This document shows positions 3,133 to 6,124 of a stretch of DNA of 38,978 nucleotides, in pieces (positions within the stretch are counted from its first letter, which is position 1; every line of letters begins with the position of its first letter). Below the pieces are notes generated by a model. It was not told the origin of the DNA. It saw only the letters and a list, made by a program, of their open reading frames with translations, and did no database searches. The DNA comes from a virus (lineage: Duplodnaviria; Heunggongvirae; Uroviricota; Caudoviricetes). The stretch lies in IMG/VR virus record IMGVR_UViG_2713896784_000029, one strand, 5' to 3'. Made by a program: the position numbers and the translations under genes.

Positions 3133-4065
3133 ATGACTGATATTAACGATGTAATCAAGACCATTGATGAACTTATTGATGGCGGCGTACTGACGCAGTA
3201 TGCCATCGCCAGAGAGGCGGGAATTTCCGACGGCACATTATCGGCTTTCCGCAAGGGAAAATATAAAGGCGATAACGCTGCTGTGGCTGCTTCCCTGCGT
3301 TCCTGGTATGAGAACTGGAATAAACAAAGCGCACTGCCGGAACCGCCGCAGTTTGTGGAAACGCAGACAGTCCAGGAGCTGCGCGCACTGTTTCAGGCGG
3401 TTCGTCTGATGGGCTGTATTAACGTTATTGTGGGCGTACCGGGTGTGGGTAAAACGGCCACTGCCCGTAATTACTGCCAGGAGCAACCAAACACCTGGAT
3501 GATCACCCTGTCACCCGCGCACTCCAGCGTCACGGAGTGTCTGCTGGAGCTGGCCGATGCGCTGGGGATTGATTACACCCGCGCGAACAAAGGGGCATTA
3601 TCCCGCGCCATCCGCCGTCGCCTGATGGGAACGCGTGGACTGGTGATTGTGGATGAGGCGGATCATCTTGGTATTGACGGTCTGGAGCAACTCCGGGCAA
3701 TTCAGGACGCCACGGGGATCGGGATGGTGCTTATTGGTAACCCGCGCGGATTGTTTAAAGGTGGACGCCGCGCCTTTGATGATTTATCGCGCCTGTTCAG
3801 CCGTCTTGCCCGTACAAAACAACTTCGCAAGGCCAAAAAGGCGGATGTGCTGGCCATTGCCAGGGCATGGGGAATCAGTGGTGAGGCCGAGCTGGCCGTC
3901 ATGCAGGCTATCGCTGAAAAGCCGGGAGCGTTACGCGTTCTGACACATACGCTTAACCAGGCGTGGCTCACCGCCAGCGGTGAAGGCGCGGCGCTGACAG
4001 AAAAACATATTAATGCGGCCTTTAAAGAGGTTTATACCAACCCTGAATTACTCTCGCAGGTGTGA
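3133..4065 (+). CDS. B: transposition target-DNA activator B (AAA+ ATPase)
   Basis: 310 aa; Walker A GVPGVGKT, Walker B-like LVIVDEADHL; immediately downstream of A; RBS GAGAGG. Confidence 0.85.
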   Translation: MTDINDVIKTIDELIDGGVLTQYAIAREAGISDGTLSAFRKGKYKGDNAAVAASLRSWYENWNKQSALPEPPQFVETQTVQELRALFQAVRLMGCINVIVGVPGVGKTATARNYCQEQPNTWMITLSPAHSSVTECLLELADALGIDYTRANKGALSRAIRRRLMGTRGLVIVDEADHLGIDGLEQLRAIQDATGIGMVLIGNPRGLFKGGRRAFDDLSRLFSRLARTKQLRKAKKADVLAIARAWGISGEAELAVMQAIAEKPGALRVLTHTLNQAWLTASGEGAALTEKHINAAFKEVYTNPELLSQV

Positions 4066-4067
4066 TT

Positions 4068-4289
4068 ATGGCTGTATTTAATATTCCTGATATTTACGGA
4101 CGCTTTTACCTGGTTAATTTCGATAACGTCAAAGCAGTCTCCATGTCTGACAGTGAAGAATGTGGCGATTTACTCTTTGAATTTAATGATCGCACCCGAA
4201 TGGCAATATCGGCAGGACTTGATCGTGAAGGTGCGAAAGAAGCTTACAGCAATATTTGTCGCTTTATCGGTGCAAGACGGGTTAGTTAA
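4068..4289 (+). CDS. hypothetical early protein (kil position)
   Basis: ATG with AGGTG RBS overlapping B stop; AT-rich; no recognisable domain. Confidence 0.45.
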   Translation: MAVFNIPDIYGRFYLVNFDNVKAVSMSDSEECGDLLFEFNDRTRMAISAGLDREGAKEAYSNICRFIGARRVS

Positions 4290-4301
4290 ACGAGAGGTTA
4301 T

Positions 4302-4721
4302 ATGAAAATGCAGATACAGCAGGAAATCAATGTTCTCCACAGCTTTCGTGAGTTTAACAACAATGACTGTGAGGTTCGTGATTATATCTATGAATTGATG
4401 AACGGTGACGGTGTGTGTTTTCTGTTTATCGACCTGTATCAATGGTATGCAGACCAGCAGTGTGAATCTGTCCGGCAGCGTTTTGATTATGAGTGCTTTG
4501 ATGTGGACGTATGGGAAGGCCTGCGTTTTGGTTTTCTGATCCCGGGTGATTATCGCCGGGAGTGGCGACATAGTTACTCCATTCTTCGGGCAATCATGCG
4601 TGGCGAAACCCGAAAAATGCCGGGGATGGGTAAGGTTAATCGCGGCCTCCTGTTAGAGATAGCAGCAGCGCACATGAATCCATTACTGATACAACCGGAG
4701 TTTACTTATGAATTTGTTTGA
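4302..4721 (+). CDS. hypothetical early protein
   Basis: 139-aa ORF with GAGAGG RBS; function unknown. Confidence 0.5.
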   Translation: MKMQIQQEINVLHSFREFNNNDCEVRDYIYELMNGDGVCFLFIDLYQWYADQQCESVRQRFDYECFDVDVWEGLRFGFLIPGDYRREWRHSYSILRAIMRGETRKMPGMGKVNRGLLLEIAAAHMNPLLIQPEFTYEFV

Positions 4722-4938
4722 TTCACTGAATAACGCCCGTCGCCTGACCGAACTTGCCGGTGCGGTACTGGAACGCAGTAAGCGCTATCCGCAACGTTTT
4801 GCACTGAAAACCACGCCGCCGGTAGGCGAGGTTCAGGGGAGTGGTGAAGAAATTGAAATCACCGTTAAGACCAACGGCCTGCGCCGCCGTGTGAAGGCCA
4901 CCCGCATAAGCGGATGCACGGTTTACTGGGAAGTATGA
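4708..4938 (+). CDS. hypothetical early protein
   Basis: 76-aa ORF with start overlapping upstream stop (translational coupling); GGAG RBS. Confidence 0.4.
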   Translation: MNLFDSLNNARRLTELAGAVLERSKRYPQRFALKTTPPVGEVQGSGEEIEITVKTNGLRRRVKATRISGCTVYWEV

Positions 4939-5012
4939 AGTTACTTCATGGTTCGGCTCTGTCATCAGGCCAGACGCCGGGTCAGTTATCCGAACAAAAC
5001 GAGGACCAGAGG

Positions 5013-5285
5013 ATGAGTAAAGTCGTACGCATTATTTTCGAATACAAGGAGCACGTTATCCATAAAAACGCTGATGGAACAGTGCGCATGGGGGTAAGTC
5101 TGGACATACGTTCAACCGGGATAAAGCAGAAAGGTGATGGACCCGCCATGATTTTTGGAGTGGTTATGCTCGCGGAAAGCAGAGACTTTGCTGAACTTGT
5201 GGCAATGAAAGCCAGAGCGCTCATGAAAGATATGAACATGAGTTCCGGGGTTATTAAAGGTAATGAATTTAATCAGCAGGGGTAA
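5013..5285 (+). CDS. hypothetical early protein, tandem paralogue 1
   Basis: Internal ATG 5013 preceded by GAGGACCAGAGG; N-terminus MSKVVRIIFEYKEHV resembles the next gene. Confidence 0.5.
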   Translation: MSKVVRIIFEYKEHVIHKNADGTVRMGVSLDIRSTGIKQKGDGPAMIFGVVMLAESRDFAELVAMKARALMKDMNMSSGVIKGNEFNQQG

Positions 5286-5289
5286 TTCC

Positions 5290-5583
5290 ATGAGCAAAGT
5301 ACGCGTTATTTTTGAATTTGAGCATGTTTCGCATGACGAAAAACCGGCAGGCAATGACAGTGTTGAAGTGCATGAAAAGATTGGAGTGGATGTGAAAACA
5401 GAACGTGATACGGATAACAGGCCGACGTCACTCTGTGACGTTTATGCAAGCATTCTCCAGTATCACAGTCCTGTAATTATTCAGTTTCTCTCAGCGGAAT
5501 TTCAGGCATCTGTACAGGCTTTTGGGGCGGATGCCATCATTAAACGCCACCGTGTGCATAAAGCATCAGGCACACTGCAATAA
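5290..5583 (+). CDS. hypothetical early protein, tandem paralogue 2
   Basis: ATG 5290; N-terminus MSKVRVIFEFEHV parallels the upstream gene. Confidence 0.5.
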   Translation: MSKVRVIFEFEHVSHDEKPAGNDSVEVHEKIGVDVKTERDTDNRPTSLCDVYASILQYHSPVIIQFLSAEFQASVQAFGADAIIKRHRVHKASGTLQ

Positions 5584-5593
5584 GGAAAACAAA

Positions 5594-6124
5594 ATGGTTA
5601 AACGTGTTACAAAATTAAAGGCCGCAGCCGAGGCTGCACCGCAGACCCGCGAAGAAGTCAGCCGCGATATCCGCACCCTGGGCGATATTCAGCGAGAGGC
5701 GCTGCGCCTGGAAACGGCAATGAATGATGAAGTGGCAGAAATCACCGCCCGTTATACGCCGCAGATTGAAAACCTTAAAAAAGAAATCAAAGTGCTTTTT
5801 AAAGGGATTCATGACTGGTGTAAAACCAACCGCAATGAGCTGACGAACGGCGGCGAAACCAAAACTGCCAATCTGACCACCGGAACGGTGTCGTGGCGAC
5901 TGGGGAATCCATCATGCAGCGTCAGTCGTGATGTTGAAGGCGTGATTGAAATGCTGCGTCGTATGGGGCTTGAGCGCTTCATCCGCACGAAAGAGGAAGT
6001 GAATAAGCAAGCTGTCCTGGCAGAGCCGGATGCGGTGAAAGGGATTGCTGGTATTAAGGTGAATAAAGGCGCTGAAAGTTTTCATGTCGAGCCTTTTGAA
6101 CAGGACGTCGGACTGAATAAATAA
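5594..6124 (+). CDS. gam: Gam host-nuclease inhibitor (DNA-end binding, Ku-like)
   Basis: Translation from ATG 5594 (RBS AAGGAAAA); motifs IGDIQREALRLETAMNDEVAEIT, ELTNGGETKTANLTTGTVSWR and RFIRTKEEVNKQAVLAEP closely parallel Mu Gam. Confidence 0.85.
   Translation: MVKRVTKLKAAAEAAPQTREEVSRDIRTLGDIQREALRLETAMNDEVAEITARYTPQIENLKKEIKVLFKGIHDWCKTNRNELTNGGETKTANLTTGTVSWRLGNPSCSVSRDVEGVIEMLRRMGLERFIRTKEEVNKQAVLAEPDAVKGIAGIKVNKGAESFHVEPFEQDVGLNK

Follow-up and report, generated by a model that had tools for sequence, protein, structure and literature searches.

Mu gp7 (E6, AAF01086.1) is an uncharacterised early protein of 87 aa. Its gene lies in the early operon of Mu, between the transposition genes and gam, and it belongs to phrog_10252. 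Literature searches turned up no function for Mu gp7, nor for WP_000049431 or WP_000049303, the two proteins described here. Tip and Aqs1 of Pseudomonas Mu-like phages are small early-operon proteins that bind host proteins and vary between related phages. Their likeness to the two proteins described here appears to be one of kind only, and searches of PDB sequences and folds with the latter came back empty. ORF7 of SfMu is identical to the Mu gene and is <50% identical to the D108 gene (PMC4406740).

The window is the whole stretch of DNA that was analysed, 38,978 nt in length, and is a Mu-like prophage of E. coli. The SCU-106 prophage is 99.5% identical to it over the tested stretch, and elements related to it are found in 232 of 5,426 complete E. 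coli genomes. Two adjacent genes, termed A and B, lie in the early operon, as Mu gene 7 does, between the transposition genes and gam (Table 1). The proteins belong to the same size class as Mu gp7 and share its N-terminal block (MAKVIIEIK... in Mu). The preliminary description gave the coordinates and quoted peptides of both ORFs exactly, and it rightly placed them in the accessory early region of Mu, immediately upstream of gam (PF07352, E 2e-39). Genes A and B are probably two distant members of a Mu-like-phage family that includes Mu gp7, with a shared cassette start and an old split between them.

Table 1. Features of the early region around genes A and B, with positions in the window
Feature	Position	Strand	Remarks
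73-aa ORF		+	First after the transposase and MuB homologues
gp8-like ORF, 139 aa	4302-4721	+	Resembles Mu gp8
Kil-like small early protein, 76 aa	4708-4938	+	phrog_2679 'Kil protein for bacterial septation inhibition', E 3e-39
Leader of gene A, 45 nt, conserved	4968-5012	+	Contains Shine-Dalgarno GAGGA
Shine-Dalgarno GAGGA of A	5001-5005	+	7 nt before A ATG
Gene A (ORF A), 90 aa, starts MSKVVRIIFEYKEHV	5013-5285	+	phrog_4107; RefSeq WP_000049431
N-terminal block of A, MSKVVRIIFEYKEHVIH	5013-5063	+	Aligns with family-wide M-[AS]-K-V-x-[IV]-[IF]-[EF]
Shine-Dalgarno AGGGG of B	5278-5282	+	Inside last codons of A
Gene B (ORF B), 97 aa, starts MSKVRVIFEFEHV	5290-5583	+	phrog_2230; RefSeq WP_000049303
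N-terminal block of B, MSKVRVIFEFEHVSH	5290-5334	+	B-allele DNA identity drops just downstream
gam, host-nuclease inhibitor	5594-6124	+	PF07352, E 2e-39; phrog_491, E 6e-67; 54% identical to Mu Gam
DUF5420 gene		+	After gam

The gene order of the window is gp8-like, kil-like, two gp7-like genes and gam, whereas that of Mu is kil, gp6, gp7, gp8, gp9 and gam. Homologues of Mu gp6 and gp9 were not seen in this stretch of the window. Mu has one copy of gene 7 located ~750 bp upstream of gam, with gp8 and gp9 between them, whereas the window has two copies that abut gam. The 76-aa Kil-like ORF has a weak BLASTP match to Mu Kil (E 5e-5), and it overlaps the gp8-like ORF by 14 nt.

Genes A and B are real coding genes under purifying selection, as judged from their RefSeq annotation, their Shine-Dalgarno sites and their dN/dS. 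Both are annotated as hypothetical proteins in the 99.5% identical prophage. In each gene the Shine-Dalgarno site is 7 nt from the ATG. The dN/dS is 0.29 for A (17 alleles) and 0.35 for B (23 alleles). The predicted products differ in charge, A being basic (pI 9.45) and B mildly acidic (pI 6.0). Two antisense ORFs, 4982-5239 (-) and 5112-5354 (-), were rejected as genes; they have no RefSeq annotation, and the conservation signal is in the + frames. Frameshifts or truncations affect many of the B copies in databases and some of the gam copies (P0050-P0056, P0061, P0062; L042-L044). These copies are either assembly errors or decaying prophage copies.

The genes are tightly packed. The ATG of B lies 4 nt beyond the stop codon of A (5283-5285), and 10 nt separate the stop codon of B from the start of gam. 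This packing would permit translational coupling of A and B. No promoter-like or terminator-like sites were found on the + strand between 4000 and 6500, which places A and B inside a long early operon. An Rfam scan of the window gave no match.

Upstream of A, gene content differs among related prophages (window 4068-4938, L002 4740-5511). In the O157-type locus (L002), ORFs of 84 aa and 93 aa replace the gp8-like and Kil-like ORFs of the window. This difference accounts for the ~200-bp length spread among the BLAST matches. The 45-nt leader of A has at most ~3 base differences across all A-bearing loci, whatever the upstream gene, in both the window and the O157-type arrangement.

By BLASTP, residues 1-17 of A align with residues 1-15 of B only, with 12 of 17 positions identical (21.6 bits, E 7e-4 in a single comparison). 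When the 53 ORFs of the window were compared all against all, six unrelated pairs scored 22.3-24.3 bits, equal to or above the A-B pair. The score of the block alone is thus within chance. The position of the block makes it appear non-trivial, because it falls at the exact N-termini of adjacent, same-strand genes of similar size.

A family-wide alignment identifies the N-terminal block as the most conserved part of the whole gp7 family. The block has the form M-[AS]-K-V-x-[IV]-[IF]-[EF] at residue 1, and MSKVVRIIFEY of A and MSKVRVIFEF of B align with MAKVIFEF and MAKVIIEI of other members. It is conserved family-wide and coincides with the upstream joint of cassette exchange (see below). For these reasons, the block of A and B reads as a family signature, a conserved start, and not as the remnant of a duplication of this pair.

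Word-indexed searches with either protein as a single sequence returned only near-identical E. coli proteins. When 50,697 phage records were searched by tblastn with A and B (E <= 10), the only matches were two Stx-phage records with an inserted Mu-like element; there was no match in Mu itself. Profiles were deepened with Gam-anchored loci and an exhaustive search. The sample drew on viral and genome collections and comprised ~150 loci surrounding Gam homologues; their 3,655 + strand ORFs were searched.

A phmmer search of these ORFs from A recovered a single-copy subtype, 'A2' (L151, E 1.2e-7), with the similarity located in the middle of A. Starting from A, an iterative HMM search picked up B in its second iteration, in alignments that were full-length (E 9e-7 to 3e-4), then a 'C' type (MAKVIFEFN...) and finally Mu gp7. 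No unrelated ORFs were picked up, and all recovered genes are at the same operon position. The same kind of iteration begun from B strayed into Gam by way of a spurious 'EYHSPVIEQL' match in L066, and this run was discarded. Across its whole length, Mu gp7 independently matches phrog_2230, the PHROG of B (E 0.009). When 1.84 billion representative proteins were searched exhaustively with a profile, only 40 clusters were obtained at E <= 1e-3. These include a 'bridge' subtype (MSNKxQVIFTFE...), which stands between A2 and B in its middle and C-terminal motifs.

Profiles were compared with hhalign. The A family against the B family gives P = 3e-6 over 33 columns, essentially the N-terminal part (88.6% probability). 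A against B plus the bridge group gives P = 5e-8 over 77 columns (94.8% probability). When every non-A member is included on the other side, A reaches P = 4e-10 over 75 columns (96.7% probability). The corresponding value for B against every non-B member is P = 1e-18 over 74 columns (99.1% probability). A second hhalign run with shallower alignments, A-only against B and its relatives, gave P = 6e-4 (29.5% probability).

With intermediates included, the signal persists when the blocks are removed from both sides. For A against B plus bridge, P is then 1.6e-4 across 56 columns with the register unchanged, and 60 column shuffles never reach the score. When A2 is added to A and the two are compared with B, P is 4.5e-5, with 0 of 100 shuffles reaching the score. 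Using shallow E. coli-only profiles, A against B with the blocks removed was not significant (P 0.13-0.19). Direct comparison of A with B detects no similarity beyond residue 17, so the case for homology depends on intermediate sequences. On this footing, A and B are very probably homologous. Together with Mu gp7 and the C type, they appear to make up one small family that is limited to enterobacterial Mu-like phages. PHROGs splits this family into phrog_4107 (A), phrog_2230 (B) and phrog_10252 (Mu gp7).

A further candidate feature of the family is a central G-P-x-[DH] motif that opens a helix (..A.I..), with P-x-I-I in a second helix after it. Gene A has DGPAMIFGVVML at this position. The B of the window has TSLCDVYASILQYHSPVII at the central motif and lacks the GP, and other B alleles carry GPCDVY. 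At the C-terminus, A ends in NQQG and B ends in GTLQ. Most family members have a C-terminal His (...KH, ...RH, ...IH, ...CH), which is absent from A, B and the A2 subtype. Mu gp7 ends in this His, unlike A and B.

No curated family matches A or B above threshold. Pfam returned nothing for A, and for B its one match, to ASRT, scored 14 bits and fell below the cut-off of 25; NCBIfam gave no match for either protein. Scattered Pfam and NCBIfam matches to single members (RraB, ASRT and others; E >= 0.007) were sub-threshold and inconsistent and were set aside. A sequence-profile search of the PDB returned nothing below E 0.16, and Foldseek against the PDB returned nothing at E <= 0.001. Foldseek against BFVD gave one unnamed viral protein of 82 aa (E 2e-3) and no usable fold match.

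Structures were predicted with AF2 in independent runs, using an A-only alignment for A and an alignment of B with well-supported relatives for B. The B model has a mean pLDDT of 75 (~85 over residues 1-78) and consists of a long beta-hairpin (4-21, 24-39) followed by helices 48-58 and 60-78. The A model, with a pLDDT of 63, is of low confidence; it comprises a hairpin (3-18, 24-38), a strand at 45-53 and a helix at 57-73. The N-terminal hairpin and the last helix occupy matching positions in the two models, in keeping with the register of the alignment. Segment 45-53, which holds the central motif, is a strand in A (low confidence) and a helix in B (high confidence), and the A model is too weak for this difference to be weighed. 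The N-terminal block forms the first strand of the predicted beta-hairpin.

The relatives of A and B differ in how they are arranged. The C type, an 89-aa protein of Mu-type prophages of E. coli and Salmonella, is strongly related to B (hhalign P = 1e-9 to 2e-11). It links to Mu gp7 with P = 3e-5 to 1e-4 over 71-73 columns. Direct profile scores of Mu gp7 against A or B are not significant (P 0.02-0.3), and the connection is made through intermediates. The C type behaves as a cassette in the same way as the B of the window, with the upstream joint in the N-terminal block. Unlike the window pair, it is single-copy, occupies the Mu gene-7 position and is strongly acidic (pI 4.6). It is probably the D108 type, judging from the remark on SfMu ORF7 in PMC4406740.

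The bridge subtype (93-98 aa; P0132, P0134, P0135, P0139-P0141) is single-copy and is the nearest relative of B. Six bridge loci (L157-L162), retrieved with P0134 or P0140, have a kil-like gene, a 90-aa slot, the family member and then DUF5420, and are syntenic with the window. In these loci (~3300-3945), the slot of A is held by an unrelated 90-aa ORF (MKSTITAYCW...), and a DUF3164 protein (PF11363, E 6e-79) stands in place of Gam. Members of the family lie in the early operon between MuB or kil and gam, or its DUF3164 replacement, and A and B are found at this position as well.

Comparison of closely related prophages points to exchange of gene bodies at this locus. Mu (L003, 4784-5047) and the prophage L117 (2472-2741) are ~99% identical up to ~base 33 of gene 7. 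The gene 7 body is then unalignable, and identity resumes just after the stop codon, at the ribosome-binding site of gp8. The two otherwise near-identical elements thus differ by a clean swap of the gene 7 body. The window and L010/L039 are 93-100% identical up to ~5300, a stretch that takes in the last part of A, the spacer and ~20 nt at the start of B. Identity falls to 40-83% across the B body (5310-5560) and returns to 83-100% from 5565 into gam.

B occurs as two allele types, whose main differences fall in residues 14-40 and in the last 25 residues of the protein. One database protein (P0046) is an apparent recombinant, with the N-terminal half of one type and the C-terminal half of the other. 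From the allele comparisons, the gp7 family behaves as a hypervariable allelic cassette with a conserved 5' handle, and the N-terminal block marks the upstream joint of the exchange. This behaviour fits the identity pattern reported for SfMu ORF7 (PMC4406740).

The A-B tandem is nearly fixed in Sp18-type E. coli prophages. Each of the 17 distinct Sp18-type variants with gene A also has B, and the two-copy state was seen only in these prophages. Every other locus with a member has a single copy, including the Mu, C-type, A2-type and Edwardsiella-type loci; one apparent double among them is a single gene split by a frameshift. A further 45 more distant Gam loci have no detectable family member. 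In the variant L036/L097 (~2620-2990), a B-type gene directly follows a diverged A-type leader, with the join at the ATG. The contiguous B-only junction occurs in three of ~229 matching E. coli genomes, namely CI5 (NZ_CP011018), M1 (NZ_CP010180) and M3 (NZ_CP010183).

The tandem could be explained by a recent in-situ duplication in the Sp18-type lineage, after which A diverged very fast and the block was left as a remnant. Several observations agree with this reading. A and B are same-strand neighbours that differ little in length, and the block of A is nearer to the block of B than to that of any other subfamily. Identical codons encode nine of the 12 identical residues in the block, compared with 5.6 expected (P = 0.03). 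The B-only variant, with B behind an A-type leader, also has the arrangement that would be seen before a duplication or after a deletion.

The profile scores argue the other way and make a recent duplication unlikely. B is nearer to the single-copy bridge genes of other phages (P = 3e-21, 93 columns) than to A (P = 3e-6), which is not expected of a recent lineage-specific duplication unless A diverged extremely fast. The remaining links are bridge to C (P = 2e-15, 76 columns), bridge to A2 (P = 8e-14, 79 columns), A to A2 (P = 3e-5, 44 columns) and A to bridge (P = 3e-4, 73 columns). In the resulting matrix, B lies beside the bridge group and A is on a long branch. In its middle, A contains the motifs STG[IL] and DGPA, as do the A2 and bridge subtypes; B has neither. 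DNA similarity between A and B is confined to ~45 nt at the 5' end and does not run along the gene, as it would between recent duplicates. The B-only leader of L036 differs from every A leader at ~10 of 45 positions. The variant is therefore neither a fresh deletion of any sampled two-copy phage nor another recent derivative of one.

The preliminary description had interpreted the shared start as local duplication and divergence, and it proposed pairwise alignment, structure prediction and a copy-number survey. The kinship of A and B holds, as that of old divergent paralogues; a recent local origin does not, given that B is nearer to bridge than to A. In the pairwise alignment, which the description had named as the test that could refute it, similarity stops at residue 17; profiles extend the homology to ~75 columns. 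The predicted structures agree in the hairpin and last helix and differ at 45-53, where the A model is weak. The copy-number survey gave A and B together in the 17 Sp18-type variants and at most one copy elsewhere.

The excess of identical codons may have its source in exchange within the block. A related explanation is that short-tract gene conversion created or maintains the likeness of the two blocks, which would have little bearing on the ancestry of the bodies. Synonymous identity in the block is above expectation while the bodies are unalignable, and recombination joints map to the block in the allele comparisons. Conversion is nonetheless an improbable cause of the likeness, since every subfamily retains the block at the protein level, even in single-copy phages, which have no conversion partner. 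The codon excess is also weak (12 codons), and homology of the bodies has independent support.

It is very improbable that A and B are unrelated, with the block due to chance or a translation-initiation constraint and the profile signal to a generic hairpin-plus-helix composition: the six higher-scoring ORF pairs, the failure of truncated shallow profiles and the separate PHROGs families would fit, but the shuffles never reach the profile scores, the register is the same with and without the block, the chain from A through A2 and bridge to B is significant at each link, and the iterative search from A stayed clean.

The reading of A and B as distant members of the Mu gp7 family with an old split leaves two routes to the tandem. 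It arose either from an old duplication with strong asymmetric divergence or from stacking of alleles by recombination between phages. The two proteins, packed between the kil-like gene and gam, would be translated early in lytic growth. Otherwise near-identical phages carry gp7-family bodies that cannot be aligned at the DNA level, and the exchange joints are marked by the conserved first 20-30 bases and by the region at or just after the stop codon. A and B nearly always co-occur. The diverged copies, one basic and one acidic, may cover different targets or act as a pair.

A and B could be early-expressed, small and soluble proteins whose binding target is a variable host or defence factor, although this can be offered only tentatively. 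The suggestion comes from their early-operon position among kil and gam, both known to be host-directed, their small size, the compact predicted fold and the narrow phage group in which they occur. Bodies that differ almost completely between otherwise near-identical phages are easier to reconcile with an arms race than with a conserved role alongside a phage partner. A more speculative extension is that the gp7 family is a dedicated diversity locus of enterobacterial Mu-like phages. The ~30-nt 5' block and the stop-codon joint would serve as handles for swapping bodies, the bodies would encode small early inhibitors of variable host-defence or takeover targets, and stacking would widen the repertoire.

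The locus is an ordinary feature of a phage genome. Its annotation value is modest, and the understanding of Mu biology is unchanged. The three PHROGs of unknown function, phrog_4107, phrog_2230 and phrog_10252, can be handled as a single family with Mu gene 7 as its anchor. WP_000049431 and WP_000049303, present in ~230 complete E. coli genomes including EHEC, would thereby join the Mu gene 7 family. Cassette exchange would mark the locus as a variable host-interaction site, and it is a reasonable place to look for anti-defence or host-takeover activities.
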